The translations under genes were made by a program, and so were the position numbers. The notes beneath the pieces are model-generated. The model was not told the DNA's origin and did not search any database. It saw nothing but the letters and a program-made list of their open reading frames with translations. This document shows positions 3,201-29,083 of a stretch of DNA of 48,467 nucleotides, one piece after another. The first letter of the stretch is position 1; the number at the start of each line of letters is the position of its first letter. Source of the DNA: an uncultured bacterium (GTDB lineage Bacteria; Actinomycetota; Actinomycetes; S36-B12); NCBI GenBank assembly GCA_903909555.1, contig CAIVWG010000240.1:1-48467 (forward strand), written 5' to 3'.

Positions 3201-3272
3201 GCCTCCGTAGCTCAGTGGTAGAGCAACCGCCTTGTAAGCGGTAGGTCGTCAGTTCAATCCTGACCGGGGGCT
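3201..3272 (+). tRNA. tRNA-Thr(TGT)
   Basis: Acceptor GCCTCCG/CGGGGGC, D arm GCTCAGTGGTAGAGC, anticodon arm ACCGC-CTTGTAA-GCGGT, T arm GTCAG-TTCAATC-CTGAC. CCA not encoded. Confidence 0.97.
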
Positions 3273-3328
3273 CTCGAACAGCCACGGCCTCGCGGCGTGC
3301 GTCGCATGGCTCACTCCAGGAGGTCAGG

Positions 3329-8468: not shown

Positions 8469-9226
8469 GCGAGCACTCCGATCTCCTTGAGGACCGCCAC
8501 GACCTGAGGCGCCGCATCGGCGCCGGTGCCGAGAACCTGGGCGCTGCTCGTCTCCTGCGGGGGCAGGGCGAGCTTGACCTTCTCCACCCGGGCGGGACGC
8601 GCCTCGGGGGTCACCGTGTCGAGCGGCTTCTTGCGCGCCTTGATGCGTCCGGGCACCGAGGGGTAGCGGGGGATGTTCACGCCATCCTTCACCGCGATGA
8701 CCGCCGGGAGCGACACCTCGTAGACCTCGCGCTCGGACCCGACGACACGCTCGCAGCGGGCGACACCGCCCTCGACGCTGAGCCCCTTGACGTTCGTCAC
8801 GATGGGCCAGCCGAGGGCATGGGCAATGCGCACGCCGACCTGGTAGCCGGAGGCGTCGGCCGACTCCGTGCCGACGATGACGGCGTCGAAGTCCGTGTCA
8901 TCAGCGGTGATCGCCGAGGCGAGAGCCGCCGCGGTGGCCTGGCCGTCCCAGTCCGATCCATCGGTCTCGAGCAGGACGCCACGATCGACTCCCACCGCCA
9001 TGACCTCGCGGATCTGCTCCGCCGACTCGGGCGTGCCGAGGGAGAAGGCCGTGACCGAGCCGCCGCCCTCGGCGAGCTGCACGGCCGCCTCGACGGCGCA
9101 CTCCTCGTGCGGGCTCAGGGTCCAGCCCATGGCGCTGCCGCTGGTGTCGATCGCGGTCTCATCGGCCGTGAGCGTCCACCTCCCGGGAGAGAGCGGGATG
9201 CGCTTGATGCAGACGGCGACGTTCAC
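8465..9226 (-). CDS. etfB: Electron transfer flavoprotein beta subunit
   Basis: VAVCIKRIP, AVEAAVQLAE, GTESADASGYQVG, NIPRYPS. GTG 9226 overlaps the upstream TGA (GTGA). Confidence 0.93.
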   Translation of the reverse strand: MNVAVCIKRIPLSPGRWTLTADETAIDTSGSAMGWTLSPHEECAVEAAVQLAEGGGSVTAFSLGTPESAEQIREVMAVGVDRGVLLETDGSDWDGQATAAALASAITADDTDFDAVIVGTESADASGYQVGVRIAHALGWPIVTNVKGLSVEGGVARCERVVGSEREVYEVSLPAVIAVKDGVNIPRYPSVPGRIKARKKPLDTVTPEARPARVEKVKLALPPQETSSAQVLGTGADAAPQVVAVLKEIGVLA

Positions 9227-11759: not shown

Positions 11760-12431
11760 CTACAGGGCCCGGCGTACCTCGGCCTCGAAGCCGCGGACGT
11801 GGATGGACATGACATCGGCCGCGCGATCGGGGTCGCCGTCGCGGATGGCCAGGAGGAGATCTCGGTGCTCGGTCACGGCGTCCTCGAGGTGGGTGACCCG
11901 GTCGAGGGCGAGGAACCAGATGCGCAGGGCGTGCATGTAGTGCTCATCGCACGCCGACTGCAGGAAGTCATTGTGTGCTGACTTGTAGACCTGGTAGTGG
12001 ATGCGCTGGTCGAGCTCGATGAGGCGGTGCATGTCGGGGTCGGCGGCCGTTTCGTCGATCGCGGCGAGCAGTTCGTCGATGCTGGCGATGTCGTCTTCGG
12101 TACGCCGCTCCGCGGCGAGGCGCGCCGCGAAGGGCTCGAGCTGTTCGCGCACCTCCGATAGGGCGGTGAGATCGCGCGGATCGAGGGCGGCGACGAACAT
12201 CCCTCGCCGGGGGTACACCTCGACGAGGCGCTCCTGCGCGAGCGTGCGCAGGGCCTCGCGGATCGGCGTACGGCCCAGGCCGAGGCGCTCCTGAAGCTCG
12301 GGCTCGCTCAGCACCGCGCCCGGCGGCAGTTCCAGGGTGACGATGAGGGCGCGGAGCTCGCGGTAGGCGCGGTCGGCCTGGGACTCCCCGCCGGTGAGAT
12401 CCGGTTGGACGAGGAGGGCGGCCACGGACAT
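11760..12431 (-). CDS. GntR family (FCD) transcriptional regulator
   Basis: LPPGAVLSE..LGLGRTPIREAL..PRRG HTH and FCD-type C-terminus (D..IH, EH..L..AIRDGD). Confidence 0.93.
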   Translation of the reverse strand: MSVAALLVQPDLTGGESQADRAYRELRALIVTLELPPGAVLSEPELQERLGLGRTPIREALRTLAQERLVEVYPRRGMFVAALDPRDLTALSEVREQLEPFAARLAAERRTEDDIASIDELLAAIDETAADPDMHRLIELDQRIHYQVYKSAHNDFLQSACDEHYMHALRIWFLALDRVTHLEDAVTEHRDLLLAIRDGDPDRAADVMSIHVRGFEAEVRRAL

Positions 12432-12542: not shown

Positions 12543-14165
12543 CTAGGAAGCGTCCGGGTCGGCGCTGCACATGGGCTGGAGCGACCCGCCCATGGCCCCC
12601 CGGACGAAGTCGTCCACGGGCGAGCCCGAGTACCTCCTCGTGATGGGGGTCCTCGCGGCGTGGTTCGGCACATTGAGGTGGGTGGCCCCGGGGAAGTAGT
12701 CGACCTCGAGGTATCCCGTGCCGTCGCAGTAGGCGCCCTCAAGGGAGTGGAAGAGCTGGTCGGTGAGGCAGTCGGTCCCCTGGACCTTGCCCTGGTTGTC
12801 CACGCACCAGATGATCTTGTCGTTGCGTCCCTGCGCGAGGTAGATGGGGACCTTCGCACCGTCATTGTCGCGCGGGAGCTTCGAATAGGAGTTCACGCCA
12901 TTGGGCCCGGGCATGTTGAACTGCAGCCAGGCGCACCAGTCTCGGACCGACTGGGCGTAGCCGCTGGGGTTGTCGCAGGTGGCGTCGAAGGCGCCCTGCC
13001 ACGTGCCGTCGACCTTCGATCCGGCGAAGGGGGCCGCGAAGAACCGTGAGTAGTCGGGGAAGAGGTAGGGGAACGCCGTCGTGTACATCGCCGTGAGGTC
13101 TGACTTGTTGAGGCACAGCTGGTTGATCTTGGGAGCCGTCTTCTGACCCTGGGTGCTGAGGACATCCGTGTAGTCGACGCTCGCGGTGGGCCCGAAGGGG
13201 AAGGCCCCGGAGGTCGCGTTCTCGACCTGGCTCCACGACATGGTGGCGAAGCTGAAGAAGGCCACGGCGATGGGGAAGGGGAGGCCGAGTCCCGGCTTGA
13301 AGTTGTAGATGTCGCGGTCGCCGAGGTGCTTGCCCAGGTAGGCCTGAGGCTGGCCGGGCGACGTGGTGAACTGGCTCGCGGGGGCCTCGGCGGCGACGCC
13401 GGCGAGGTCAAGGCTCTTGTCGCCTTCGTGGGTGAAGTACTGCGAGGCGAGCTGCCCGGCCCACAGGGCGGCGAGGCCGCCCTGAGAGTGACCCCAGGTG
13501 ACGAGGGGAAGAGCCGCGTCGCTCCTGATCGCTGCGAGGCCGAAGGACTCGGCATTGCGGGTGAGCGTGCGCGCGGAGTCGAGCACGGCGAGCCCCTGCG
13601 CCACGCCGAGGACGTAGCGCTGGAGGTCGTTGCTGCCGACGCCGGCGGACGGGTAGTCGGTCGCGACGACGGCATACCCGTCCTTGAGCATGTTGACGAG
13701 CGCGCCGTTGGACTGCGGGCCCTTCTTGGTCACGCTGCCGATGCCGGAGGGCATGGGCCCGACGAACGTGGTCGGGTTCATGCTGGGCTGGCACTGCTCG
13801 GCGACGCCGAGGGTGCCGTGAGCCCAGGCCACAACGCCCTTGACCGCGCCCCCCGGGAGGTCGCCGGCGTCGGGCACGGCGACGAGGCCGCAGGAGGCGA
13901 CCACCGAGTCGGCCGAGCCCGTGGTGGCGTAGGCGACGCGGTAGAGCCGGCCCGTGGCGAGCTGGGACTCCGCGGTCACGTCCTGGGGCGGGGCCAGCAG
14001 GTCACCCGGCTGCGCCCCGGCAAGGGCCTGAGAGATTCCGGCGCCCGTGCAGACGTTGTCGGAGGGGGAGTCGGCTGCGCTCTGGGAGGGCAGTGGCGCT
14101 GCTTGCGCGCTCGCAGCGGTGGCTGCGCCAAGGGCGACGGCGGCGACGATGGCCAGGATCTTCAC
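12543..14165 (-). CDS. Secreted lipase (LIP-type alpha/beta hydrolase)
   Basis: Signal peptide ending ASAQA, VAWAHGT, VATDY, WGHSQGG. GTG 14165 has a GGGAGG RBS; alternative ATG at 14186. Confidence 0.85.
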   Translation of the reverse strand: MKILAIVAAVALGAATAASAQAAPLPSQSAADSPSDNVCTGAGISQALAGAQPGDLLAPPQDVTAESQLATGRLYRVAYATTGSADSVVASCGLVAVPDAGDLPGGAVKGVVAWAHGTLGVAEQCQPSMNPTTFVGPMPSGIGSVTKKGPQSNGALVNMLKDGYAVVATDYPSAGVGSNDLQRYVLGVAQGLAVLDSARTLTRNAESFGLAAIRSDAALPLVTWGHSQGGLAALWAGQLASQYFTHEGDKSLDLAGVAAEAPASQFTTSPGQPQAYLGKHLGDRDIYNFKPGLGLPFPIAVAFFSFATMSWSQVENATSGAFPFGPTASVDYTDVLSTQGQKTAPKINQLCLNKSDLTAMYTTAFPYLFPDYSRFFAAPFAGSKVDGTWQGAFDATCDNPSGYAQSVRDWCAWLQFNMPGPNGVNSYSKLPRDNDGAKVPIYLAQGRNDKIIWCVDNQGKVQGTDCLTDQLFHSLEGAYCDGTGYLEVDYFPGATHLNVPNHAARTPITRRYSGSPVDDFVRGAMGGSLQPMCSADPDAS

Positions 14166-14389
14166 GTGGGCCTCCCGAGCGGACATGGCGGACGGCTTCC
14201 CAGACTAGGCAGCGATGCCACGGGGATGCGCGCTCGTGGCCGGTTTCCCTCCCCGTCAGCCTGGTCCCGCACGTGACCCACCCCTTCCCACCACGATCGC
14301 CAAAGGTCGTCCGCGCAGGTGGGCGACGCCTACGCCGACATCGTGGTCACGTCGGTCTCGGGCAACTACTCCGGCAGGTAGCCGCGCCG

Positions 14390-14992
14390 TCAGGGGACGA
14401 CGGCGCGGAGGGCCGGGCCGAGGCGGCCGGGGGCATCGACGATCTCCAGGGGCAGGCCGAGGCGCTCGGCGGCCCGCTGCGCCGCGCGCTCCAGGTCGGG
14501 GGTGCGTCGGCCTGCGAGCCAGACCACGCGCGAGTAGTGGCGAAAGTAGTCGTCGCGCAGTTCGGGGTGGCGGTCCAGCCCGAGCTCGCGCCAGACGACT
14601 CGGTCGAAGGACAGCACGAGGAAGTCGGTGAGGACGTAGGTGCCCGGCTCCGCCTCCCAGATCGCGGCCATCTGCTGCTCTCCGGCGTAGATGTCGTAGC
14701 AGTGCTGTCCGACGAGCCGGCGCAGCCCGTGTCGCTGGCAGACCTCGTCGAGAGCTCCGTGGGTGCCGCAGTCGGCGTAGCCGATGGCGATGTCGTCGTA
14801 GCGCTCGCGCAACTCGAGCACGAGTCGCTCGACCTCGGGAGCGATGCGCTCGGGCCGGTTGTGCAGCAGCGGCGGCAGCGGATGGATGTCGACGTCGCGA
14901 CCGGACTCCTCGATCCACGCGGTGGCATCGGCGCTCAGCGCGCCGCAGAGGATGAGGGCGGTGCGTGGCTTACCGGGGGAACGCGAGCTCAT
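14390..14992 (-). CDS. DUF1638 domain protein
   Basis: ILCGAL, LPPLLHNRPERI, GYADCGT, HCYDIY, GTYVLTDFL, LGLDRHPELRDDYF. Overlaps the upstream activator gene. Confidence 0.85.
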   Translation of the reverse strand: MSSRSPGKPRTALILCGALSADATAWIEESGRDVDIHPLPPLLHNRPERIAPEVERLVLELRERYDDIAIGYADCGTHGALDEVCQRHGLRRLVGQHCYDIYAGEQQMAAIWEAEPGTYVLTDFLVLSFDRVVWRELGLDRHPELRDDYFRHYSRVVWLAGRRTPDLERAAQRAAERLGLPLEIVDAPGRLGPALRAVVP

Positions 14993-16826
14993 CGACGAAC
15001 CGATCGTTGAAGTCCGTGCGGTCGGAGAGCTCGACATAGTGGATCTCGTCGAGCAGGGCCCGCGCGCCGTGGCGCTCGGAGTCCGACAGCAGGGCCATCT
15101 TCGCGCCCTCGCCGGCGACGTTCCCCGCACTCACGATGCGCACGACCGGGATACTCGGCACGAGGCCGATGCCGACGGCGCTCTTGGCCGACAGGTAGGT
15201 GCCGAACGACCCGGCGAGGAGGACCTGCTGGATCTCGGACTCCTCGGCGCCGAACTCCTCGAGCAGGAGCTTCCAGCCGGTCGAGATGGCGGCCTTCGCG
15301 AACTGCAGCTCGCGCACGTCGCGCTGGCTCAGGTAGATGTCCTCGCCGTTGCCGGACTCCGCGGCGGTGGCGAGGACGAACAGGCGCTCGCCATCCCGCT
15401 CGACGAAGCGTCCTGCGATGTCGGGTCGATTCGCGGCGATGGCCTCCTGGGGCACGAATCGTCCGGAGTCGTCCATGAGTCCCGCCCGATGGAGCTCGGC
15501 GATGGCGTCCACGAGACCGGACCCGCACAGACCGATCGGCGCCACATCGTCGATGACCTGCAGGGCGATGCCGTCCTCGCCGATGGTGACGACCTCGATG
15601 GCGCCGGGGGCCGCCCGCATCCCGCAGCGGATCGAGGCCGCCTCGAAGGCCGGCCCCGCGGGTGCCGCCGTGGCCATGAGTCGCTCCCCGTTGCCGAGCA
15701 CGATCTCGCAGTTGGTGCCGATATCGATGAAGAGCCGCAGTCGCTTGTCCCGGTCCATGCCCGCGGCCAGCACCCCGGCGATGATGTCGCCGCCGACGTA
15801 GGCCCCGAGGTGGGGGAAGACCATCGCGCGGGCCCGCGGGTGCACGTGCACTCCGAGGTCCATGGCGAGCAGGCCCTCGTAGGACTCGGTGGCGAGGATG
15901 AACGGCGCGACGCCGAGCGGCTCGGGATCGATGCCGAGGGCGAGCTGCGCCATCGTCGCGTTGCCCGCCAGTGCCACCTCGTAGACCTGGTCGGGGGAGA
16001 CGCCCGCCTGCGTGCAGACTTCCTGGGCCAGCTCGTCGAGGGTGCCGTGCGCGAATGCGCGCAGCTTGTCGAGGGCCTCGGGATCGAGCATCGTGGCGCT
16101 GATGCGGCTGATGACGTCGGCGCCGAACGGCTGCTGCTGGTTGAGCATCGACGCTACGGCGATGGGCGCGCCGGTGGTGAGGTCCATGAGCGTGCCCACG
16201 GCCGTGGTCGTGCCCAGATCGAAGGCGATGCCGTACGACGAGCCCGTGGTGTCCCCGGGCTCGAGGGCGATGAGGTCGGTGCCCACGACGACCGCGGTGA
16301 CGGTCCACTTCGCGGCGCGCAGCGTCGTGCCGAGGGACCGCAGCAGGCCCGGATCGATGGTGAGTTCGAGGTCATCGAGGGCGTCGCGCACACGCTGCAC
16401 GTCGGTGCGCTGGTCGGCGAGGGTCGGCTCCTCGAGTTCGATGAGGCGCTTTTGGACGGCGGGACGGAGGATCACCTGCCGTCCGACGCCCACGGTTGCG
16501 GCCTTGGGGCGCGTGGTGAGCTCGGGGACGTCGACGGTGAGGTTCGCGACGGCGTTCGCCATGCACGCCAGGCGCCAGCCGTCGGCGAGCTGGTCGGGGG
16601 TGAATGCGCGCTCGTCGAGTCGGCTCACCGGGACTGAACCGTCGGCAATGCGGACCCTGCACTTCTTGCACGTGCCGTGGCCGCCGCAGGTGGAGTCCAC
16701 CGCAACGCCGTTCCAGAGGGCGGCGTCGAACACCGAGACCCCACTCGGCACCCGAACGGACTTGCCGGCGGGGACGAAGTCGAGGGTGACCCGGGCGGGC
16801 CCCTCGGCGGTCGCGCCGTCGCTCAT
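14970..16826 (-). CDS. Corrinoid reductive activator (RamA/RACo-like, ASKHA ATPase with N-terminal 2Fe-2S domain, DUF4445)
   Basis: CGGHGTCKKC...RLAC ferredoxin motif; DLGTTT, DIGTNCE, AGPAFE, CGSGL, LAGSFG. ATGA overlap at start. Confidence 0.92.
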   Translation of the reverse strand: MSDGATAEGPARVTLDFVPAGKSVRVPSGVSVFDAALWNGVAVDSTCGGHGTCKKCRVRIADGSVPVSRLDERAFTPDQLADGWRLACMANAVANLTVDVPELTTRPKAATVGVGRQVILRPAVQKRLIELEEPTLADQRTDVQRVRDALDDLELTIDPGLLRSLGTTLRAAKWTVTAVVVGTDLIALEPGDTTGSSYGIAFDLGTTTAVGTLMDLTTGAPIAVASMLNQQQPFGADVISRISATMLDPEALDKLRAFAHGTLDELAQEVCTQAGVSPDQVYEVALAGNATMAQLALGIDPEPLGVAPFILATESYEGLLAMDLGVHVHPRARAMVFPHLGAYVGGDIIAGVLAAGMDRDKRLRLFIDIGTNCEIVLGNGERLMATAAPAGPAFEAASIRCGMRAAPGAIEVVTIGEDGIALQVIDDVAPIGLCGSGLVDAIAELHRAGLMDDSGRFVPQEAIAANRPDIAGRFVERDGERLFVLATAAESGNGEDIYLSQRDVRELQFAKAAISTGWKLLLEEFGAEESEIQQVLLAGSFGTYLSAKSAVGIGLVPSIPVVRIVSAGNVAGEGAKMALLSDSERHGARALLDEIHYVELSDRTDFNDRFVDELAFPR

Positions 16827-17710
16827 CCGCCAGCCGCGTCCTGGGCGGCGGCCTTGGCGGCGGCCTCCTTGGCACGGTGCGCCGCGATCCAGTTCGCGCC
16901 CCACTCGTCATTGCCCCGCATGAGGTCGGCACCCTTCACCGCCGTGACGATCTGCGGGGTGCGGGAGTCCATGATCGCGCTGGTGAGTCCGGCCTGGATC
17001 GCCATGGGGAGGAAGACCGCGTTGAGCGTGTGGCGGTCGGGCATGCCGAAGGACACGTTGGACGCCCCGAGCGTGGTGTTGACGCCGATCTCGCTCGAGA
17101 TCAGGTGAATGGCCTCCATCGTCTTGTAGGCCAGGGTGTGATCGGCGCCCACCGGCATGGCGAGGGGGTCGACCACGATGTCCTCGATGGGGATGCCGAA
17201 CTCCTCGGTGGCGATGCCGATGAGCTGCTTGGCCAGTTCGAGCCGCCGGTGGGGGTCCTCGGGGATGGCCTCCTCGTCGTTGGGCAGCGCGATGACGGCG
17301 GCGCCGTAGCGCTTGACCAGCGGGAGGATCTGGTCGATGCGCTCGCGCTCCATCGTCACGGAGTTCACCAGGGCCTTGCCCTGGTACGCCGCGAGGCCAG
17401 CCTCGAGGGCCTCGACGACCGAGGAGTCGATGCACAGCGGCACGTCGGTGAGCGACTGCACGAGCGTCACCGCCTCGCCCAGCAGCTTCGCCTCGTCGAC
17501 CAGCGGCGCGCCCATGTTGACGTCGAGCATCATGGCGCCGCCGGCGATCTGCGCGTGGACGTCTACCTCGACGGCCGACAGGTCGTTCTCGCGCAGCTGC
17601 TCCTGGAACTTCTTGCGCCCCGTGGGATTGATGCGCTCGCCGATGATGCAGAACGGCTGATCCGGCCCGATGGTGACCGAGGCGCCGGCCGAGCTGAGGA
17701 CGGTGTGCAT
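16823..17710 (-). CDS. Methylcorrinoid:tetrahydrofolate methyltransferase (pterin-binding, AcsE/MtgA/MetH-Fol-like)
   Basis: IIGERINPTGRK, LDVNMG, LCIDSS, LVNSV, VVDPL, LGASNVSFGMP; GGAG RBS. Confidence 0.92.
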   Translation of the reverse strand: MHTVLSSAGASVTIGPDQPFCIIGERINPTGRKKFQEQLRENDLSAVEVDVHAQIAGGAMMLDVNMGAPLVDEAKLLGEAVTLVQSLTDVPLCIDSSVVEALEAGLAAYQGKALVNSVTMERERIDQILPLVKRYGAAVIALPNDEEAIPEDPHRRLELAKQLIGIATEEFGIPIEDIVVDPLAMPVGADHTLAYKTMEAIHLISSEIGVNTTLGASNVSFGMPDRHTLNAVFLPMAIQAGLTSAIMDSRTPQIVTAVKGADLMRGNDEWGANWIAAHRAKEAAAKAAAQDAAGG

Positions 17711-17717
17711 GGGACTC

Positions 17718-18665
17718 CTATCCCGCGGTGGTGCCGGCGGCGGTCGCCACCGGGTCGAAGGCAGGCCCGATTCCCAGGTCGCGGACCAGCCGCTCGAGGG
17801 AGCCGTCATGCCGGAAGTCGGTGAGGTGGATGCCGGAGACGCCCGGCAGGGACAGGGCGTGCCGCGAGAGCTCGAGCGTGAGCTGGTACGACGCCTCCGC
17901 GATGGCCTCCTTGTCCCCGGCATCGGCGACGCGGCGGATCGTGTCGGCGGGGATGGAGATGCCCGGCACGGACTCGTCCATGAAGGACAGCGCCCGGGCG
18001 GTCTTGGTGAGCACGACCGTGGGGAGCAGGGCGGTCGTGTCCGTGACCCCGGTCTCCACGCAGCCGCGGACGAAGTGCTCGAGGCGATCGGGGTAGTAGC
18101 CGATCTGCAGCTGCAGGAAGCGCGCCCCGGCCTCGGCCTTCTTCCTGGCCCGCAGGACGCGGTAGTCGAGGGGGGGAGCGAAGGGATTCTCGACGGCGCC
18201 GACGAAGAGGGCGGGGGGCTCCTTGATGGCGCGGCCGGAGAGGTAGTGGCCCTCCGCCAGGCCGCTGGCGACCTTGATGAGCTGCGTGCTGTCGAGGTCG
18301 AAGACGCGCCGCGCCTCTGGCTCGTCGCCTGCGGTGACATCGTCCCCGGTGAGGCAGGCGACGTTCTCGACGCCGAAGAGCGAGGCGCCCATGATGTCGG
18401 CCTGCATGGCGATGCGGTTCTTGTCGCGACAGACGACCTGCATGATCGGCTCGAGCCCGAACTGCATCATCGCGATCGCGATCGAGGTATTGGATGCGTG
18501 CGCGTGCGCCGCGGGATTGTCAGTGGCGTTCACGGCGTCGACGTAGGGACGCATCTCGTCGGCCGCCTTCTCGACCGCGGCGAGCCCCCCGCCGTCGATG
18601 CTGGGGAACTCCGCGGTCACGACGGGACGCGTCCGCGCGGCGAGGAGGTCGGACAGCCGGCTCAC
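17718..18665 (-). CDS. metF: Methylenetetrahydrofolate reductase
   Basis: VVTAEF, VNATDNP, EPIMQVVCRDKNRIAMQ, CLTGD, VFDLDS, KKAEAGARFLQLQ. GTGA overlap with the metV-like stop. Confidence 0.9.
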   Translation of the reverse strand: MSRLSDLLAARTRPVVTAEFPSIDGGGLAAVEKAADEMRPYVDAVNATDNPAAHAHASNTSIAIAMMQFGLEPIMQVVCRDKNRIAMQADIMGASLFGVENVACLTGDDVTAGDEPEARRVFDLDSTQLIKVASGLAEGHYLSGRAIKEPPALFVGAVENPFAPPLDYRVLRARKKAEAGARFLQLQIGYYPDRLEHFVRGCVETGVTDTTALLPTVVLTKTARALSFMDESVPGISIPADTIRRVADAGDKEAIAEASYQLTLELSRHALSLPGVSGIHLTDFRHDGSLERLVRDLGIGPAFDPVATAAGTTAG

Positions 18666-19111
18666 GCGTGGAACCCCGCGGGGAGCGTCGTGGGCTCGTC
18701 GACCTCGACCATGCTCGCGCCGGGGACGGCGGAGAAGCGCTCGTGCGACTCCCCGGCCCACCCGGCCGGCGTGCGGCGATCACGCTTCGTCACGAGGTTG
18801 ACCCACGACGAGGTGCCCTGGAGGCGGTTGTCGACAGGCGGGCGAAGGTCGTGGAACTCCTCCTCCCAGTGATGAGGATTCACGGGCGAGTGCGAGCGCT
18901 CCTCGGCCTTGACCCACACGCAGCGCATCTCCGGCTTGACCTCGCAGTGCCCGTCCTCGCGCACGCCTCCGCACGGGCCATTGCGCAGGGTCTTGGGGCA
19001 GGTCATCGGGCAGGTCATGCCGGTGGAGTGCAGGACGCACTGGCCGCACATGCGGCAGTCCCACACCGGCTTCTTCACGGCGTGCTCGAGGAGGGGAAGC
19101 AGCTTGGGCAT
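18662..19111 (-). CDS. metV: MetV-like Cys-rich partner of MTHFR (MTHFR_C domain)
   Basis: CRMCGQC...CPMTCPKTLRNGPCGG...CEV...CVW; translationally coupled to metF. Confidence 0.85.
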   Translation of the reverse strand: MPKLLPLLEHAVKKPVWDCRMCGQCVLHSTGMTCPMTCPKTLRNGPCGGVREDGHCEVKPEMRCVWVKAEERSHSPVNPHHWEEEFHDLRPPVDNRLQGTSSWVNLVTKRDRRTPAGWAGESHERFSAVPGASMVEVDEPTTLPAGFHA

Positions 19112-19120
19112 GGGGCCGCG

Positions 19121-19777
19121 CTATCCGGCGCGCTTCGCGGCGACGAACTCCTTGGCCTTGCGCACGGCCGTGGCGGCATCGGCGGCGTACCCGTCGGCCC
19201 CGCAGACATCGGCGTACTCCTGCGTCACCGGCGCCCCGCCCACCATGACGACCACCCTGTCCCGCAGCCCGGCCTTCTCGATGGCATTGATGTTGGCCTT
19301 GAACATCGGCATCGTCGTGGTGAGGAAGGCAGACATGCCCACGATGTCCGGCTGGTGCTCCTCGATGGCGGCGACGAACTTCTCCGGCGGCACCTGCACG
19401 CCCAGATCGATCACGGTGAAGCCGGCGCCCTCGAGCATGATGTTGACGAGGTTCTTGCCGATGTCGTGGACATCGCCCTTGACCGTGCCCATGAGGAACG
19501 TGCCCACGCTCTCGACACCGGTCTGCGCGAGGAGGGGTCGAAGGAGGTCGAGCGCTGCAGCCATCGCCTTGCCGGCGATGAGCATCTCGGGCACGAACCA
19601 GTCGCCACGCTCGAAACGCGCGCCCACCTCCTCCAGCGAGGGAATGAGGGCCTCGAACAGCATGGTCTCGGGGGGCATGCCCGAGTCGATGCCCGCTTGG
19701 GTGAGCTCGATGACGGCGGGCTTGTTGCCGATCATGGTCTCGTCGTAGAGGCCCTTGAGGATCTCGTCGGGGGTCAT
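19121..19777 (-). CDS. Corrinoid (B12-binding) protein, MttC/MtgC type
   Basis: Cap domain (FVPEMLIAGKAM), DxHxxG motif in GDVHDIGKNLV, SAFLTTT, VGGAPV. ATGA overlap with iclR. Confidence 0.95.
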   Translation of the reverse strand: MTPDEILKGLYDETMIGNKPAVIELTQAGIDSGMPPETMLFEALIPSLEEVGARFERGDWFVPEMLIAGKAMAAALDLLRPLLAQTGVESVGTFLMGTVKGDVHDIGKNLVNIMLEGAGFTVIDLGVQVPPEKFVAAIEEHQPDIVGMSAFLTTTMPMFKANINAIEKAGLRDRVVVMVGGAPVTQEYADVCGADGYAADAATAVRKAKEFVAAKRAG

Positions 19778-20601
19778 GCTGCTCCCTTGCGTGAGGTGCC
19801 GGCTCGGTCGTGGCGGGGTTGCGGGCGGAGGGCCAGGCTGATGGCGTCGGCCGCCTCGACCACATGCGCGGCGACCTGGGGGATCGCCTCGGGGGTGAGG
19901 CGCACGGAGGGTCCGGAGACCGACACGGCCGCGGTCACCGACCCGTCCGCTGAGCGGATGGGCGCGGCCACGGCGACGAGGCCCGGCTCGAGCTCGGAGT
20001 CCACGACCGCGAAGCCCTGGCGGGCGACCCGGTCGAGCTCGCGCTGCAACTGGGAGCGCGAGGTGAGCGTGTGCTCGGTGAGGCGGGGCAGTCGGCCGGC
20101 CGGCAGGGGGTAGCCGTGGGCGAGGAAGACGCGTCCGAGCGCGCTGCAGTGGAAGGGGACCGGCTGGTCGAGCCAGTTGACGGCGCCGAGGAGGTACGTC
20201 GAGTCGACCTGGGCGATCTGGCGAACTTCGCCGCCGAGCGGGATCGCGAGGTTGACGGTCTCGCGGGTGAGCGCCCCGAGCTGATCGAGAGATGGCTGCG
20301 CCATCCGGATGAGGGTGTCCTCCGGGCGCACCGACAGGGCGTAGTCGGCGATCACGGGGCCCGGCACCATCGCGCCGTCGTCCGTGCGCTGGACGAGGCC
20401 GCTGCGCTCCAGGCTCGACAGCAGGCGGGAGACCGTGCTCTTGGGCAGGCCACTCGCGGCGACGAGGTCGGCCGAGGCCACCGGCTCGGGGGAGTCCAGG
20501 ACGGCGACGAGAAGCAGGGCCGCCCGATCGACGGCCTGGGTGCCCACCGGGCCCGCGGGGGCGGCCAAGCCGCCCCGGTCGGACTGCGCCGCGGGTGCCA
20601 T
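19774..20601 (-). CDS. IclR family transcriptional regulator
   Basis: QAVDRAALLL, GLPKSTVSRLL HTH, RETVNL, HCSALGRVFLA, VAAPI, VSVSGP; AAGGA RBS. Confidence 0.93.
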   Translation of the reverse strand: MAPAAQSDRGGLAAPAGPVGTQAVDRAALLLVAVLDSPEPVASADLVAASGLPKSTVSRLLSSLERSGLVQRTDDGAMVPGPVIADYALSVRPEDTLIRMAQPSLDQLGALTRETVNLAIPLGGEVRQIAQVDSTYLLGAVNWLDQPVPFHCSALGRVFLAHGYPLPAGRLPRLTEHTLTSRSQLQRELDRVARQGFAVVDSELEPGLVAVAAPIRSADGSVTAAVSVSGPSVRLTPEAIPQVAAHVVEAADAISLALRPQPRHDRAGTSRKGAA

Positions 20602-20619
20602 GGTCCTTCCCTTCGCGAG

Positions 20620-20636
20620 GTTCCACCATATGGAAC
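20620..20636. promoter_or_regulatory. Palindromic candidate IclR operator GTTCCA-N5-TGGAAC
   Basis: Perfect 6-bp inverted arms in the divergent iclR/mttB intergenic region. Confidence 0.65.
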
Positions 20637-20653
20637 ACGTGTGCCAAAAAGCG

Positions 20654-20663
20654 AGTGTAGGAT
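20654..20663. promoter_or_regulatory. Overlapping divergent -10 elements: TACACT on - (20654-20659) and TAGGAT on + (20658-20663)
   Basis: Both match the actinobacterial TANNNT consensus and point toward the two divergent operons. Confidence 0.45.
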
Positions 20664-20716
20664 CCCCTCCCAGGTCGGTCAAGGCGGACGGTCCGGTCAC
20701 GACGGAGGGAAACCCC

Positions 20717-22156
20717 ATGTTCGTCAACAATCTCCCGCGCTACGACATCCTGTCCGAGGACTCGATGGCGGTCCTCGACCGCGGCTGGCGGCGGATCGTC
20801 TCGGAACTCGGCGTGGAGTTCATGAAGCCCGAGGCCGTCGAGCTGTTCAAGGCCGCCGGGATGCGCACCGAGGGCGACAAGGTCTTCTTCGACCCCGACT
20901 TCGTGCTCGAGCAGGTGGCCAAGGCGCCGCGCGAGTTCGACATCCAGGCGCGCAACCCGGACAACACCGTGCACATCGGCGGCAACCACATGGTCTTCTC
21001 CAGCGTGTACGGGCCTCCCTTCGTGCGCCAGGGCGACGTACGTCGTGATGCCACGATGGAGGACTACCGCAACTTCGCGAAGCTCGCCCAGTCCTTCAGT
21101 GCCATCGACAGCGTGGGCGGCGTCGTCTGCGAGCCCAGCGATGCGCCGCTCGACTCGCGCCACCTCGACATGCTCTACGCCGCGATGACGCTGACCGACA
21201 AGTTCTACATGGGCAATGTCGTGAGCGGCACGCGTGCCCTCGACACCATCCGGATGAGCGAGATCCTCTTCGGCAGCCGCGAGGCGATCGAGGAGACACC
21301 CGTGTGCATCTCCCTCATCAACTGCAACTCGCCGCTGCGCTGGGATGACCGGATGCTCGAGGCGCAGTTCGAGTACGCCCACGCCATGCAGCCGGTGGTG
21401 CTGACGCCCTTCCTCCTCATGGGCGCCATGTCCCCGGTGTCGATCCCCTCGACGCTGGCGCAGCAGATGGCCGAGACGCTCACGGGGATCGCGCTCACCC
21501 AGCTCATCCGGCCGGGGGCGCCCGTGGTCTTCGGATCGTTCCTCTCCAACATCGACATGCAGTCCGGCTCCCCGCAGTTCGGCACCCCGGAGTCGGCGAT
21601 CGGGCTGCTGTGCACCGGGCAGATCGCCCGCCACATCGGGCTCCCCTTCCGCACCGGCGGCGGGCTCAACTCGTCCCAGACGCCGGATGCGCAAGCGGCG
21701 TTCGAGTCCCTCATGACGATGCTGCCGACGTTCCTGGCCGGCACGAACTTCGTCATGCACACCGCGGGCTGGCTCGAGGGCGGCCTCGTCGCGGGCTACG
21801 AGAAGTACGTGCTCGACGTCCAGGCCCTGGAGTCACTCGAGAGGGAGTTCACCCCCGTGGACTTCACCGACGAGACGCTGGCCTTCGGAGCTCATGAGGA
21901 GGTGGGTGCGGGCGGGCACTTCCTGGGAGCCGAGCACACCATGGAGCGCTTCCGCACCTGCTTCTACCGGCCCTTCCTGTGGAACTCCGACAACTTCGAG
22001 CGCTGGACCCGCCTGGGCGCCCGCGACGCCGTCGAGCGGGCCCGCGAGGTGTACGAGAAGAAGCTCGAGGAGTACGAGCCCCCGCCGCTGGACGAGGCGA
22101 TCCGCGAGGAGCTCGAGGAGTACGTCGTCCGGCGCAGGGCCGAACTCGGGGACTAG
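20717..22156 (+). CDS. MttB-superfamily methyltransferase, non-pyrrolysine (probable glycine betaine:corrinoid methyltransferase, MtgB-like)
   Basis: INCNSPLRWD, GAMSPVS, GTPE, PDAQAAFE, HTAGWLEGGL, GGHFLGAEHT. No in-frame TAG. Substrate inferred from betAB/ABC context. Confidence 0.9.
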   Translation: MFVNNLPRYDILSEDSMAVLDRGWRRIVSELGVEFMKPEAVELFKAAGMRTEGDKVFFDPDFVLEQVAKAPREFDIQARNPDNTVHIGGNHMVFSSVYGPPFVRQGDVRRDATMEDYRNFAKLAQSFSAIDSVGGVVCEPSDAPLDSRHLDMLYAAMTLTDKFYMGNVVSGTRALDTIRMSEILFGSREAIEETPVCISLINCNSPLRWDDRMLEAQFEYAHAMQPVVLTPFLLMGAMSPVSIPSTLAQQMAETLTGIALTQLIRPGAPVVFGSFLSNIDMQSGSPQFGTPESAIGLLCTGQIARHIGLPFRTGGGLNSSQTPDAQAAFESLMTMLPTFLAGTNFVMHTAGWLEGGLVAGYEKYVLDVQALESLEREFTPVDFTDETLAFGAHEEVGAGGHFLGAEHTMERFRTCFYRPFLWNSDNFERWTRLGARDAVERAREVYEKKLEEYEPPPLDEAIREELEEYVVRRRAELGD

Positions 22157-22184: not shown

Positions 22185-22730
22185 ATGATCCCTCGAGTGC
22201 GTCCCGCCCTCACTGTCCTGGCCGCCGCCGGGCTGCTGCTCGCCGTTCCTGCGCCTGGCCAGGCGGACGAGCGAGCCCCGCGCACCAAGACCCTCGTCTT
22301 CGAGATCAGCCTGACCCCGGTGTCCCAGGACTCGCATTCGCTGCCTGGCGGCGTGATCTACGGCCAGGGCACCCTCGAGGGCACCACCTCATGGGGCCGC
22401 CGCGCGGCCACGGTGGAGTGGCAGTGCAGCCGTGCACTCGTCGACGGCGCCGGGCCCGCGAACGACCTCGTGACGATCCGCCGCTCCTCCGACGGTGCCG
22501 TTCTCGCGCTCGCGGTCACCGGCTGGATCACCCCCCGCGACGGCGCGCCGTACCGCCTGGACGGGAGCGTCGAGGTCCTCGGCGGCAAGGGGCGCTACCG
22601 GGGCGCCACGGGCAACGGCACGGTGACGGGCCTCCCCGGTCGCGCCACCCTCACCGTCACCGTCGTGCAGCCGCACGCCGCTCCCCGCGATGCGGCCGCT
22701 CCGCGCGCCTGGGGGGACGTGGGCTGCTGA
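22185..22730 (+). CDS. Secreted protein with dirigent/allene-oxide-cyclase-like beta-barrel motif
   Basis: AAGGAGG RBS, N-terminal signal peptide, VLGGKGRYRGATGNG motif. Confidence 0.6.
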   Translation: MIPRVRPALTVLAAAGLLLAVPAPGQADERAPRTKTLVFEISLTPVSQDSHSLPGGVIYGQGTLEGTTSWGRRAATVEWQCSRALVDGAGPANDLVTIRRSSDGAVLALAVTGWITPRDGAPYRLDGSVEVLGGKGRYRGATGNGTVTGLPGRATLTVTVVQPHAAPRDAAAPRAWGDVGC

Positions 22731-22770
22731 GCCGGCCCGGGGCGGCCACGACGGGTCGTAGAGTGTGCGC

Positions 22771-24450
22771 ATGCCGAGGGGTTACGACTACATCATCGTG
22801 GGCGGCGGATCCGCCGGATGCGCCCTCGCGGCCCGGCTGACCGAGGACCCGTCCACCCAGGTCCTGCTCCTCGAGGCGGGACGTCCCGACTACGCCTTCG
22901 ACGTCTACGTCCACATGCCTGCCGCGCTCACCTTCCCCATCGGCAACCCCCTCTACGACTGGATGTACGCGTCGCAGCCGGAGCCGCACATGAACGGCCG
23001 GCGCATCAATCACGGCCGCGGCAAGATCCTCGGGGGCTCGAGTTCCATCAACGGGATGATCTTCCAGCGCGGCAACCCGATGGACTACGAGCGCTGGGCC
23101 GCGGATCCCGGGATGGAGTCCTGGGATTACGCCCACTGCCTGCCCTACTTCAAGAAGATGGAGGACTGCCGCGCCGGCGCCGACGAGTGGCGGGGCAAGG
23201 ACGGCCCGCTCATCCTCGAGCGGGGCGAGGTGCGCAATCCGCTGTTCTCGGCGTTCTTCGCGGCGGTCCAGGAGGCCGGGCACGAGATCACCTCCGACGT
23301 CAACGGCTACAAGCAGGAAGGCTTCGCGGCGTTCGACCGCAACGTCCACCACGGGCGCCGCTACTCGGCCACCAAGGCCTATCTCCGCGACGCCCTCGCA
23401 CGGCCCAACCTCACCCTCAAGACGCGGGCGCATGTCACCCGGATCACCGTCGATACCTCCTCAGACACCCCTCGGGCGACCGGCGTCGAGGTGTCGCTCG
23501 CCGGGAAGCGCCCCGTCAGCGTGCGCGGGTCCGAGGTGATCCTCTGCGGAGGGGCGTTCAACTCCCCGCAGCTGCTGCAACTGTCCGGCATCGGCAACGC
23601 CGATGACCTTCGCTCCGTGGGCGTCGACCCCGTCCATCACCTTCCCGGGGTCGGCGAGAACCTCCAGGACCACCTCGAGGTGTACGTCCAGCACGCGTGC
23701 ACGCAGCCGGTGTCGCTCAACCCGAACCTCCAACTGTGGCGCCGTCCTGTCATCGGCGCGCAGTGGCTGTTCCTCCGGTCAGGGCCCGGAGCGTCAAACC
23801 ACTTCGAGGCAGGTGGCTTCATTCGCAGCAACGACGAGGTCGACTACCCCAACCTCATGTACCACTTCCTGCCGATCGCCGTGCGGTACGACGGCACCGC
23901 GCCAGCGGGCGGCCATGGCTACCAGGTGCACATCGGGCCCATGTACTCCGACGCGCGCGGGAGCGTGTGGATCACCGGCCCGGACCCCTACGCCCCGCCG
24001 GCCTTCCGCTTCAACTACCTGTCGACCGAGCAGGACCGCCGCGAGTGGGTGGAGGCGATCGCCAAGACCCGCGAGATCCTCGCGCAGGCGGCCTTCGCTC
24101 CCTACAGCGGCGGAGAGATCTCACCGGGGCCCGACGTGCAGTCCGACGAGGCCATCCTCGACTGGGTGCGCCGCGACGGGGAGACGGCGTACCACCCCTC
24201 CTGCACCTGCCGGATGGGCGTCGACGACATGTCCGTCGTCGACCCGCTCACCATGCGCGTGCACGGGACGCAGGGCCTGCGTGTCGTGGACGCGTCGGTC
24301 ATGCCCTACATCACCAACGCCAACCTCTACGCCCCCACCATGATGATCGCCGAGAAGGCCGCCGACCTCATCGCCGGCAACACCCCGCTGGCGCCGGAGC
24401 ACGCCCCCTTCTACCGCCATCGCAAGGAGGCCGCGGCCGCCCATGGCTGA
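22771..24450 (+). CDS. betA: Choline dehydrogenase
   Basis: [64 protein letters not shown] 22771 lies 6 nt after TAGAGT. Confidence 0.95.
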
Positions 24451-25942
24451 CCTCTTCATCGGCGGCCACTGGGTCGCTGCCGCCGACGGGGGAACCCGTG
24501 AGATCCGCTGCCCCGCGGATGGCCAGCCGGTGCGTCGCGTCGACGAGGCGACGTCGGCGGACACCGTGCGCGCTGTCGAGGCGGCGCGGGAGTCCTTCGA
24601 TGACGGCCGCTGGCGCTCCGTGCCCTTCACCGAGCGCGCCCAGTTCCTCGAGCGCGTCGCCGACCTTCTCGAGCGCGACGTCGATGCCATCGCGCGCGCC
24701 GAGTCCCTCGATACGGGCAAGCGCCTGGTGGAGGCGGAGTACGACGTGGCCGACGTGGTGCGGTCATTCCGCTACTTCGCGGGCCTCGCCGGCGGCGATG
24801 CCGTGGGCGGCCGAGTGGTGGATGCCGGCAATCCTCAGGTGCGCTCGCGCATCGACTACGAGCCGGTCGGCGTGTGCGGGCTGATCACGCCCTGGAACTA
24901 CCCGCTCCTCCAGGCGTCGTGGAAGGTCGCCCCCGCGCTCGCGGCGGGCAACTCCTTCGTCCTCAAGCCCAGCGAACTCACCCCGAGCACGACCATCCAC
25001 CTGGTGCGGCTGCTCGAGGAAGCCGGGCTCCCTCCCGGCGTCGCCAACCTCGTGCTCGGCGCCGGTGCGGTCGCGGGAGCCCCGTTGGCGACCCACCCGG
25101 GAGTCGACATGGTGTCCTTCACCGGCGGCCTGGCGACCGGTCGCCGGATCATGGCCGATGCCGCGGGCACGGTGAAGAAGATCGCCCTCGAGCTCGGCGG
25201 CAAGAATCCCAACATCGTGTTCGCGGACGCGGACCTCGACGCCGCCATCGACAACGCGGTCACCGCGGTGTTCCTGCATTCCGGGCAGGTGTGCTCGGCA
25301 GGAGCGCGGCTCCTCGTGGAGGAGTCCGTCCACGACCGCGTGGTCGATGGCATCGTCGCCAAGGCCGAGCGGATCAGGCTGGGAGGCCCCTTCGACCCCC
25401 GCGCCGAGACGGGCCCCCTGATCTCCGCGGGGCACCGGGAGAAGGTGGAGGCCTACGTCGCCGCCGCCCTGGCCGAGGGCGCGGTCCTGCGATGCGGCGG
25501 ATCGGCCCCCGATCCGGCCGAACACCCCTCGCTCGCGGCGGGCTTTTACTACCGTCCCACTGTGCTCGACCGCTGCCGCACGTCCATGTCCTGCGTCCAG
25601 GACGAGTCCTTCGGCCCCGTGCTCACCGTGGAGACGTTCGCGACGGAGGACGAGGCCGTGCGCCTGGGCAATGACACGACCTACGGCCTCGCGGGAGCGG
25701 TGTGGACCTCGGACGCCGGGCGCGGGGAGCGCGTGGCGGCAGCGCTCCGCCACGGCACGATCTGGATCAACGACTACCACCCCTACCTTCCGCAGGCGGA
25801 GTGGGGAGGATTCAAGCAGTCGGGCGTCGGACGGGAATTGGGCCCGACGGGCCTCCACGAGTACCTCGAGGCCAAGCACGTGTACCGCAACCTGGCGCCC
25901 GCGCCCAGCGGGTGGTTCGACGGGGAGGGGGCCGGTTCATGA
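24443..25942 (+). CDS. betB: Betaine aldehyde dehydrogenase
   Basis: [46 protein letters not shown]. Overlaps the betA stop. Confidence 0.88.
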
Positions 25943-27027
25943 GTGCCGTCGACGCCGTGAGCACCTCGCCGGCGATCTCGGTGCGCGGGCTGTGGAAGGT
26001 CTTCGGGCCCAAGGCGGACCAGGTGGTCGGGACGCCCTACGCCAACCTCAGCCGCGACGACCTGCTCAAGGAGACCGGCTGCACCGCCGCCGTGCGCGAC
26101 GTGACGTTCGACGTCGCCGAGGGCGAAGTCTTCGTCGTCATGGGGCTGTCCGGTTCGGGGAAGTCCACCCTCGTGCGGTGCCTCACACGGCTCATCGACT
26201 CGACGGCCGGCGAGGTGCTCATCGAGGGGGAGGACATCCTCAAGGCGTCGCCGTCCCAGCTCCGCCACCTGCGGCGGACCGAGTTCTCCATGGTGTTCCA
26301 GCACTTCGGCTTGCTTCCGCACCGCAAGGTGATCGACAACATCGCCTACCCCCTCGAGATCCAGGGGGTGAAGAAGGACGTGCGCTACGCCCGCGCCGAG
26401 GAAGTGATCCAACTGGTCGGGCTGCAGGGCTACGGCAACGCCTACCCGGAGCAACTCTCGGGCGGCATGCAGCAGCGCGTGGGCCTGGCGAGGGCCCTCA
26501 CCGTCAACCCCGAGGTCATGTTCCTCGACGAGCCGTTCAGTGCACTCGACCCGCTGATCCGCCGCGACATGCAGGCCGAGGTGATGCGCCTGCACCGCGA
26601 GCTCGGCAAGACCATGGTGTTCATCACCCATGACCTCGCCGAGGCCATGAAGCTGGGCGACCGCATCGCGATCATGCGCGACGGCGCCATCGTGCAGATG
26701 GGCACCGCGAAGGATCTCGTGATGAATCCGGCGGACGGCTACGTCGAGAACTTCCTACGGGACATCCCCAAGAGCCATGTCCTCACCCTCGACGTGGTCG
26801 CTCGGCCGCTGCGCAGCGATGAGACCGCGAGCAGCGTGACCCTGCCCGGTTCGACGATCATCCGCGACGCCACCGGCGCGATCATCAGCGCTCACGGCCC
26901 CGTCCGCGTCATCGAGGGCGGCCGGGAGATCGGCGTCGTGAGCAGCGAGGACGTGCTCGCCCTCATCGCGGGCGACCACGCCCCGGACGGGGTGGCGGAG
27001 CCGCAGCCGTCGGGCCGGGGCGACTAG
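25939..27027 (+). CDS. Glycine betaine/choline ABC transporter ATP-binding subunit (ProV/OpuAA-like)
   Basis: [52 protein letters not shown] overlap. Confidence 0.93.
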
Positions 27028-27030
27028 GCC

Positions 27031-28986: not shown

Positions 28987-29083
28987 GAGGGCCCCCGAGA
29001 CCGATCCGTTACCCGCATCTGCCCCGATCGGTCGCTGGCCCGACCTACGATGGCGACGACATCAGACCCTTCCGGGAGGAAGA

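Follow-up and report, generated by a model that had tools for sequence, protein, structure and literature searches.

The window analysed here is the whole of contig CAIVWG010000240.1 (48,467 nt, assembly GCA_903909555.1) from an uncultured actinobacterium of the class Actinomycetes, and at positions 14390–22156 it carries a divergon of eight genes that would encode a corrinoid-dependent methyl-transfer system, probably one that begins glycine betaine (GB) breakdown. A sequence-only reading had described these eight genes; all of them lie where it placed them, each matches its Pfam family above cut-off, and the span is exact at both ends. As the high G+C content of the window (~70%) leaves many spurious open reading frames (ORFs) open, genes were picked by third-position G+C and then confirmed with Pfam and NCBIfam profiles.

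The plus strand carries mttB (20717–22156), encoding a 479-aa non-pyrrolysine MttB-family substrate methyltransferase (MT1), predicted to be a GB:corrinoid methyltransferase, which matches PF06253 at 634.6 bits (cut-off 25) over profile positions 20–500 of 500. Its start codon, ATG at 20717, is preceded by GGAGGG; the longest ORF, from GTG at 20384, is an unlikely start since it overlaps iclR. The minus strand carries an operon of seven genes, the first of which encodes a 275-aa IclR-family regulator (19774–20601; IclR_C 116.6 bits, HTH_IclR 45.3 bits) whose start, ATG at 20601, is preceded by GAAGGGAAGGA. It is followed by the gene for a 218-aa MtgC-like corrinoid protein (19121–19777; B12-binding 104.8 bits, B12-binding_2 55.5 bits), which comprises cap and Rossmann domains with the B12 motif DVHDIG (DxHxxG). 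The best NCBIfam model of this protein is NF047996, 'glycine betaine-specific corrinoid protein MtgC' (198 bits, under the 370 cut-off), and its nearest structures are PDB 1y80 (196 bits) and MttC 7xcn (138 bits).

The next two minus-strand genes encode a cysteine-rich small subunit, MetV (149 aa, 18662–19111; PF12225, DUF5981/MetV, 87.7 bits), and the methylene-tetrahydrofolate (methylene-THF) reductase MetF (315 aa, 17718–18665; PF02219, MTHFR, 75.4 bits); their Pfam matches and overlapping stop and start identify them as a MetVF-type pair. They are followed, on the same strand, by a 295-aa MtgD-like methyl-THF:corrinoid methyltransferase (MT2; 16823–17710; Pterin_bind 102.9 bits), which scores 311 bits against PRK07535, the model for methyl-THF:corrinoid/iron-sulfur protein methyltransferases, and so exceeds its cut-off of 259. 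The nearest structures of MT2 are MeTr 1f6y (148 bits) and the folate domains of MetH (90–126 bits), and the protein is therefore of the MtgD/MeTr type rather than the type of Desulfitobacterium hafniense MtgA, no structure of which was among its PDB matches at E≤1e-10.

The last two genes of the operon encode a 618-aa RACo-type reductive activator (14970–16826, minus strand) and a 200-aa DUF1638 protein (14390–14992, minus strand, alternative start at 15037; PF07796 82.2 bits). The activator matches Fer2, RACo_linker, Raco_middle and RACo_C_ter, all above cut-off, in the order N-terminal [2Fe-2S] ferredoxin, linker, middle domain and ASKHA ATPase, and contains the cysteine pattern CGGHGTCKKC...C. 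It is collinear over its full length with Carboxydothermus hydrogenoformans RACo (3zyy, 341 bits, residues 16–614), which places it in the RACo family, and scores 432.6 bits against the AcsV model (cut-off 800).

The claim that the operon is tightly coupled and divergent from mttB holds, as there are stop/start overlaps at three junctions (ATGA between iclR and the corrinoid protein gene, GTGA between metV and metF, ATGA between the MT2 and RACo genes) and the DUF1638 reading frame overlaps the RACo stop. The 115-bp region between iclR and mttB contains a 17-bp palindrome, GTTCCACCATATGGAAC (20620–20636), of the form GTTCCA-N5-TGGAAC, which is likely to be the IclR operator. A promoter-like site on the minus strand (20682–20654) lies just upstream of the palindrome (one found, 0.3 expected) and is a weak pointer, the terminator and promoter scans of the window being near chance level. 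No cobalamin riboswitch was found in the window at Rfam gathering scores, at which a tRNA (3201–3272) was the sole match.

The MttB-family methyltransferase

The sequence-only reading had placed a leucine at the pyrrolysine (Pyl) position by eye, and HMMER alignment to Methanosarcina barkeri MttB (7xcl) confirms it: Leu317 of the 479 residues stands opposite the Pyl (X), and its codon, CTC, occupies nucleotides 21665–21667 within GGGLNSSQTPDAQAAFE. There is no in-frame TAG or other stop in mttB, the frame being open over the whole match, and the full-length match to PF06253/COG5598 together with an ordinary residue at the Pyl site makes the protein a non-pyrrolysine member of the family. Beyond TIGR02369 (276 bits, cut-off 525), no NCBIfam subfamily model matched it. 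Its nearest structures are 4yyc (454 bits, residues 6–477), D. hafniense MtgB (9yce/2qne, 395 bits) and M. barkeri MttB (7xcl, 132 bits). The name 'trimethylamine methyltransferase' is a misnomer for such genes, and the present results refine that annotation.

D. hafniense MtgB is the founding non-Pyl member (Ticak-type), whose GB-binding residues Y97, R312, H348 and F356 were defined by mutagenesis and a GB-bound structure, and in which the F356L change raises the Km from 0.88 to 734 mM (PMC13080624, Table 1). Alignment to 9yce with HMMER shows that the window MttB keeps three of these four residues as Y98, R312 and H348, including the carboxylate-binding pair Arg312 and His348. All three, together with Trp352 and Gly356, are shared by every one of 121 close homologs, from a search whose best 120 matches are, all but one, 76–93% identical to the window enzyme.

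Positions 352 and 356 were surveyed across the wider superfamily, for which the search returned 8478 representative clusters (50% identity) at E≤0.001, of which 1474 remain at E≤1e-30. The best 150 were taken, of which 99 full-length representatives (440–570 aa) were used and 51 fragments or sequences of odd length were dropped. An aromatic residue was present at 352 only in 37 of the 99 (Trp in 33, with Gly at 356 in 30), at 356 only in 41, at neither position in 21 and at both in none; position 98 is aromatic in only 9 of the 37 sequences with an aromatic residue at 352. A midpoint-rooted tree of 100 sequences (FastTree, LG+gamma) places the window MttB within a 47-leaf clade (support 1.0) holding every sequence with an aromatic residue at 352. 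The 352/356 pattern follows two clades and is thus not independent covariation, but it suggests that the cation-pi residue may have moved by four positions, with Trp352 replacing Phe356. The mutual exclusion of aromatic residues at 352 and 356 would offer a marker, simple and open to testing, by which two large branches of the superfamily could be told apart.

The choline-to-glycine island, its host and its relatives

The sequence-only reading had called the system stand-alone, which understates the locus, as the divergon is embedded in an island of choline, GB and dimethylglycine catabolism. On the plus strand, mttB is followed by betA, encoding a 561-aa choline dehydrogenase (22765–24450; TIGR01810 832.8 bits, cut-off 732.1; PRK02106 865.2 bits, cut-off 605), and a betB-like gene for a 499-aa betaine-aldehyde dehydrogenase (BADH; 24443–25942; Aldedh 548.8 bits), whose best NCBIfam model, TIGR01804 BADH, scores 582.8 bits, under the 668.6 cut-off. 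An OpuA-type ABC transporter follows on the same strand (25939–30124; ABC_tran, BPD_transp_1 in two stretches, OpuAC 104.4 bits), made up of an ATPase (25939–27027), a fused permease (27031–28986) and an OpuAC substrate-binding protein (29084–30124) that matches the choline-binding model TIGR03414 weakly (48.5 bits).

The minus strand on the other side of the divergon carries the gene for an 835-aa dimethylglycine/sarcosine dehydrogenase-like flavoprotein (9223–11730; domain order DAO-FAO_M-GCV_T-GCV_T_C, GCV_T 238 bits, DAO 169 bits), for which no NCBIfam model reached its cut-off. It is accompanied by etfB (~8465–9250) and etfA (7509–8468), whose matches to the NCBIfam electron transfer flavoprotein alpha and beta models are all below cut-off, and by a 555-aa formate-THF ligase (5833–7500; FTHFS 880 bits; PRK13505 896.9 bits, cut-off 652). 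A GntR/FCD regulator (11760–12431, minus strand; GntR 64.2 bits, FCD 97.9 bits) lies between the dimethylglycine dehydrogenase block and the operon. Judged by gene content, the product of each step of the pathway is the substrate of an enzyme encoded by a neighbouring gene. The neighbours would make GB, consume dimethylglycine and dispose of folate-bound one-carbon (C1) units, so that the only gap is the conversion of GB to dimethylglycine, which is an MtgB-type step. The module is probably the cobalamin-dependent first step of GB catabolism within a choline-to-glycine island of an aerobic actinobacterium, and there is good reason to take GB as the substrate of MttB, which we infer from the conserved context and not from orthology to MtgB.

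This context was followed through related loci. Among 600 matched stretches listed from species-representative genomes, 418 encode an MttB relative, so that at least 418 species-level genome records contain one, and the best 80 of these (72–94% identity) were used; they carry Actinomycetota labels, apart from a few generic or evidently mislabelled titles of metagenome-assembled genomes (MAGs), and include cultured Nocardioides (sp. B-3, panacisoli, iriomotensis, islandensis and others) and Phycicoccus (avicenniae, sonneratiae). Synteny was scored by tblastn of the window proteins (E≤1e-10, alignments covering half of the query or more) in the 57 loci with at least 8 kb upstream of mttB. IclR, the corrinoid protein and RACo are present in all 57, MT2 in 56 and DUF1638 in 53, while BetA is encoded within 10 kb of mttB in 39, BetB in 34 and the dimethylglycine dehydrogenase near mttB in 13; in 12 loci betA begins only 5–113 nt 3' of mttB. 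MetF and MetV lie in the operon in 11 and 10 of the 57 loci, and their position there appears to be a trait of the nearer relatives of the window; the GntR/FCD regulator occupies the same place in nine. Of 80 regions, comprising the window and 79 loci (L006, having no upstream DNA, was dropped), 43 have a GTTCC-N5-9-GGAAC palindrome no more than 160 bp upstream of mttB.

Three further genes in the window lie close to or within the span of the island. The ~600 nt that separate mttB from betA are taken up by a 181-aa ORF (22185–22730, plus strand), which lacks a Pfam match, has an N-terminus resembling a signal peptide (MIPRVRPALTVLAAAGLLLAVPAPGQA...) and is recognisable (67% nucleotide identity) only in locus L004. 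A secretory-lipase gene (LIP family, 47 bits; 12543–14186, minus strand) between the GntR regulator and DUF1638 is absent from all 80 related loci by tblastn and looks to be an insertion particular to this lineage. A patatin-like phospholipase is encoded at ~3245–4255; that the lipase or the phospholipase might release choline-containing head groups is pure speculation.

The host MAG (2.79 Mb in 277 contigs) is 88.6% complete with 2.4% contamination. The composition of the contig fits the bin (GC 0.711 against 0.704 ± 0.014; tetranucleotide distance at the 1.7th percentile of 176 contigs), and it carries core actinobacterial genes for F420 synthesis, DUF3499 and LpqB. Horizontal transfer as judged by composition was rejected, there being no signal in the GC or tetranucleotide usage of the contig. 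The G+C content rises near position 30124 from ~0.69 in the catabolic island (1–30 kb) to 0.74 at 30–48 kb, a stretch with the F420 synthesis, glycosyltransferase, DUF3499 and LpqB genes; the genome mean is 0.704.

The spread of the enzyme was surveyed in 401 genomes sampled evenly from the host's class, host included, with a threshold of E≤1e-50 for MTTB and with genomes flagged as unpublished counted in the tallies (G023 in that of MTTB, nine in that of PF02965). MTTB was found in 40 of the 401 genomes and 20 of 175 genera, and in none of the five other sampled genomes of the host's family; its distribution is patchy, not rare. Family f45 includes many MTTB-positive genomes (e.g. G233, G181, G118, G201) with two or three paralogs, among which a second group scores ~500–530 bits and suggests further substrates in those lineages. 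An O2-sensitive system of this kind had been called notable in this lineage, which overstates the case: aerobic Proteobacteria already have a published system of this kind (PMC5764234; PMC12478193, on marine bacteria in 2025), about one in ten of the sampled class genomes carry the MT1, and the at least 418 records with relatives include cultured aerobes. In a peatland study, mtxB genes were expressed by Actinobacteriota (PMC10805028); no study devoted to this system in Actinomycetota was found in the literature searched, in which it appears as metagenomic mentions only (PMC10805028, PMC12478193).

Methionine synthesis and cobalamin supply

The MetH activation domain (PF02965) was not found in the host genome, a negative that applies to a genome 88.6% complete. 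The three Pterin_bind genes of the host are MT2 and two DHPS-like genes; one on contig C69 was considered as a second MT2 and rejected, being DHPS-like (TIGR01496, 118.5 bits) and next to a RibD_C gene. Apart from the corrinoid protein, only mutase-like genes contain B12-binding domains. There is one stand-alone PF02574 protein (297 aa, 234 bits, contig C159), which matches best to PRK07534 (287 bits, under the 338 cut-off; mmuM 81 bits), a family renamed MtgE by Mausz et al. (PMC12478193). The host thus combines a stand-alone MtgE-like protein with the absence, at this level of completeness, of a classical MetH.

The same combination recurs in the class, where the cross-tabulation of MTTB, MetH and MtgE-like genes was made by hand from genome handles. 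PF02965 is missing from 57 of the 401 genomes, that is, from 18 of the 40 MTTB-positive and 39 of the 361 MTTB-negative ones. MtgE-like orthologs (E≤1e-60, 55–66% identity; frames mostly ~300 aa, range 296–511 aa) occur in 27 genomes, 25 of them MTTB-positive, and in 17 of the 18 MTTB carriers that lack MetH. The other five genomes of the host's family have MetH and neither MTTB nor the MtgE-like gene, and genus g12 includes one MTTB-positive genome without MetH and two MTTB-negative genomes with it. The MtgE-like gene lies in the 10-kb upstream flank of the operon in three loci, from a Nostocoides and two Phycicoccus. These linked orthologs (57% identity; L022:3973-4839, L027:2878-3765, L028:2811-3671) share the flank with MT2, RACo and DUF1638, and such linkage is lacking in the host genome.

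As an MtgE-like protein is present and no MetH was found, the module probably also serves methionine synthesis, and the term stand-alone would fall short here as well, with the corrinoid protein and MT2 probably shared between the two uses. That the module doubles as a three-part (split) methionine synthase with the MtgE-like protein is a proposal we favour slightly, as several observations speak against it. Two MetE-like genes or fragments of the 'core methionine synthase' type (C144:2-622 and C234:3-1964, both at contig ends; 124 and 81 bits against PRK04326, both below cut-off) could make methionine without B12. MetH is kept in 22 of the 40 MTTB-positive genomes, and its absence from a MAG may be an assembly gap. 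The association with MetH loss rests on few independent events, because a single family (f45) accounts for 14 of the 18 carriers that lack MetH.

The sequence-only reading had asked for a check of the genome for B12 synthesis or uptake. Synthesis was not found: the 88.6% complete genome has two TP_methylase genes, no CobS and no CobD/CbiB, so the system would depend on imported cobalamin. For uptake, the check yielded candidates only. The sole cobalamin riboswitch found in the host (C92:5722-5836, plus strand, 37.8 bits) precedes genes for a membrane protein of the SCO2321 family (149.5 bits, below cut-off) and a protein of the SCO2322 family (L084:5852-7030 and 7038-7349, neither with a Pfam domain), which are candidates for B12 uptake or handling. 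The genome also encodes a PduO-type adenosyltransferase, and the host looks like a B12 scavenger.

Proposed pathway, alternatives and known systems

The OpuA-type ABC transporter would take up choline or GB, and choline would be oxidised to GB by BetA and BetB. MttB would then bind GB, with Arg312 and His348 holding the carboxylate and Tyr98 and probably Trp352 holding the quaternary nitrogen, and would give one methyl group to the Co(I) corrinoid protein, yielding methyl-Co(III) and dimethylglycine. MT2 would hand the methyl group to THF, MetVF would oxidise methyl-THF to methylene-THF, and formate-THF ligase would close the C1 branch as the exit of C1 units, while the dimethylglycine dehydrogenase-like enzyme with EtfAB would strip the next methyl group or groups. 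Oxidation of Co(I) to Co(II) is to be expected often in an aerobe, and the RACo-type activase and DUF1638 may re-reduce the inactive Co(II) using the [2Fe-2S] and ATPase domains. IclR could control both divergent promoters through the palindrome. In the reverse direction of flux, the corrinoid protein and MT2, together with the MtgE-like protein of C159, would form the three-part methionine synthase. Choline and betaine turnover would thereby be tied to an external supply of B12 and probably to methionine synthesis, and the pathway is testable in culture, because Nocardioides and Phycicoccus strains carry the cluster.

Several findings weigh against this reading. The aromatic pair of MtgB (Tyr97 and Phe356) is not reproduced, the window enzyme having Gly356 and, instead, Trp352, whose take-over of the role rests on mutual exclusivity in the alignment only. 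The 47-leaf clade excludes P0144, the representative of the D. hafniense MtgB cluster (677 bits to 9yce), to which the window MttB is 38–39% identical, and the latter therefore sits on a branch sister to that of the D. hafniense enzyme. As P0144 is the sole characterised anchor, the tree bears only on whether the two share a clade; the phylogeny proposed by the sequence-only reading thus sets the window enzyme apart from the Desulfitobacterium MtgB with which it had been compared, and of that comparison the three shared residues stand, Phe356 and membership of the same major clade do not. Substrate specificity in the MttB family cannot be read from sequence. The best models for BADH, MtgC, AcsV and PRK07534 score under their curated cut-offs, and the missing corrin synthesis counts on the same side.

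These points leave room for MttB to act on another amine (proline betaine, carnitine, gamma-butyrobetaine, choline or another betaine) instead of GB, particularly as the superfamily is large (the 8478 clusters above) and its characterised members differ in substrate. Arg312 and His348 do not discriminate for GB, because MtcB, MtpB, MthB and MtyB keep both (PMC13080624). Such a substrate is nevertheless fairly unlikely: BetA and BetB next door would make GB and the dimethylglycine dehydrogenase-like enzyme would consume the product of its demethylation, the betaine linkage is conserved in the related loci, Pfam annotation of the window revealed no genes for carnitine or proline betaine, and, if Trp352 is counted, both aromatic positions are filled, a combination in which only the minority of Trp352-type enzymes with an aromatic residue at 98 share. 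Alternatively, the operon might in essence be a split methionine synthase accompanied by the proteins that reactivate it, in which case mttB would be an unrelated neighbour or play a minor part. The MtgE-like gene and the lack of a detected MetH in the host fit this, as do the requirement for the same parts in methionine synthesis by Phaeobacter inhibens (PMC5764234) and a genome (G300) with the MtgE-like gene and without MTTB, but mttB and the operon share the 115-bp regulatory region with its conserved palindrome, the whole surrounding island is catabolic, and the module is dispensable for methionine in the 22 MTTB-positive genomes because MetH is present there. The adjacency of mttB to the operon in 57 of 57 loci points the same way, though it is not an independent result because the loci were selected through MttB; we consider this alternative very unlikely.

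The cluster could also be a recent horizontal acquisition, or the contig mis-binned, and so be uninformative on the physiology of the lineage, as the patchy distribution in the class and the five MetH-containing relatives without MTTB or the MtgE-like gene might suggest. This is highly improbable given the actinobacterial core genes on the contig, its GC and tetranucleotide usage, both typical of the bin, and the GC of the island (0.69–0.70), near the genome mean; transfer would, moreover, not render the system non-functional. With GB demethylation as the preferred role, a wider picture can be drawn tentatively, as something a little short of an even prospect: in several Actinomycetota lineages, the host included, the betaine island would house the only B12-dependent methionine synthase of a cell that has lost MetH and does not make B12, with an MT1 of an aerobic-type clade that binds betaine with Trp352. 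If so, osmolyte catabolism, methionine supply and vitamin scavenging would all depend on a single small corrinoid protein that RACo and DUF1638 keep active in air.

Among known systems, C. hydrogenoformans RACo (3zyy, 4c1n) resembles the window activase over its full collinear length and in all four Pfam domains; its partner is CoFeSP of the acetyl-CoA pathway, whereas that of the window activase would be a small MtgC-like protein, and a DUF1638 gene follows. Methanosarcina MttB/MttC/RamA belongs to the same superfamily and shares the three-component logic and ATP-dependent reductive activation. The window MttB differs from its MT1, to which it scores only 132 bits, in having Leu for pyrrolysine and THF in place of coenzyme M as the presumed acceptor, and the window activase differs from RamA in being a RACo-type protein that begins with a [2Fe-2S] domain. 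The nearest structure, 4yyc, which we take to come from Sinorhizobium meliloti, has the same residues (Y/R/L/H/W/G) at 98/312/317/348/352/356; its title, 'putative trimethylamine methyltransferase', gives no function.

D. hafniense MtgB/MtgC/MtgA is likewise built on a non-Pyl MttB-family TIM-barrel MT1, to which the window enzyme (395 bits to 9yce, Leu at the Pyl site) has equivalents of Tyr97, Arg312 and His348, and has a cognate corrinoid protein and RamA-type activation. The differences are Gly356 with Trp352, the other major clade, the Pterin_bind/MeTr-like MT2 of the window, and the lifestyle of D. hafniense, which is strictly anaerobic and conserves energy from the methyl groups.

The closest likeness in the set of parts, recognised here by domains, is to the aerobic Ruegeria and Phaeobacter systems. 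In R. pomeroyi, N-osmolytes induce MtgB paralogs, RamA, DUF1638 and MetF2, and knock-outs of mtgC and mtgD no longer grow on GB and become unable to make their own methionine; most MtgBCD genomes are without MetH, and Actinomycetota are mentioned only as 5% of mtgC reads (Mausz et al. 2025, PMC12478193). In P. inhibens, the three-part methionine synthase needs ferredoxin-DUF4445 (RamA-like) and DUF1638 proteins, mutants in which are methionine auxotrophs, and DUF1638 co-occurs with the RamA-like protein (Price et al., PMC5764234). The window shares with these systems a PF06253 MT1, a separate B12-binding protein with DxHxxG, a Pterin_bind MT2 with a metF paralog beside it, a ferredoxin-fused RamA/RACo-like (DUF4445) activase and DUF1638, here adjacent with overlapping frames, a stand-alone homocysteine-binding protein elsewhere in a genome in which MetH was not found, GB-catabolic genes close by and an aerobic host. 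It differs in the phylum of the host, Actinomycetota, in the two-subunit MetVF reductase, and in having all parts but MtgE in one IclR divergon, whereas those of R. pomeroyi are scattered. The sequence-only proposal of a non-Pyl MttB system demethylating a quaternary amine is thus well supported by domains, nearest structures and conserved context. The window adds no new mechanism; it is a new host for the known aerobic MtgBCD(E)/RamA/DUF1638 system, and would extend B12-dependent GB demethylation to Actinomycetota from many habitats, as a compact regulated divergon.

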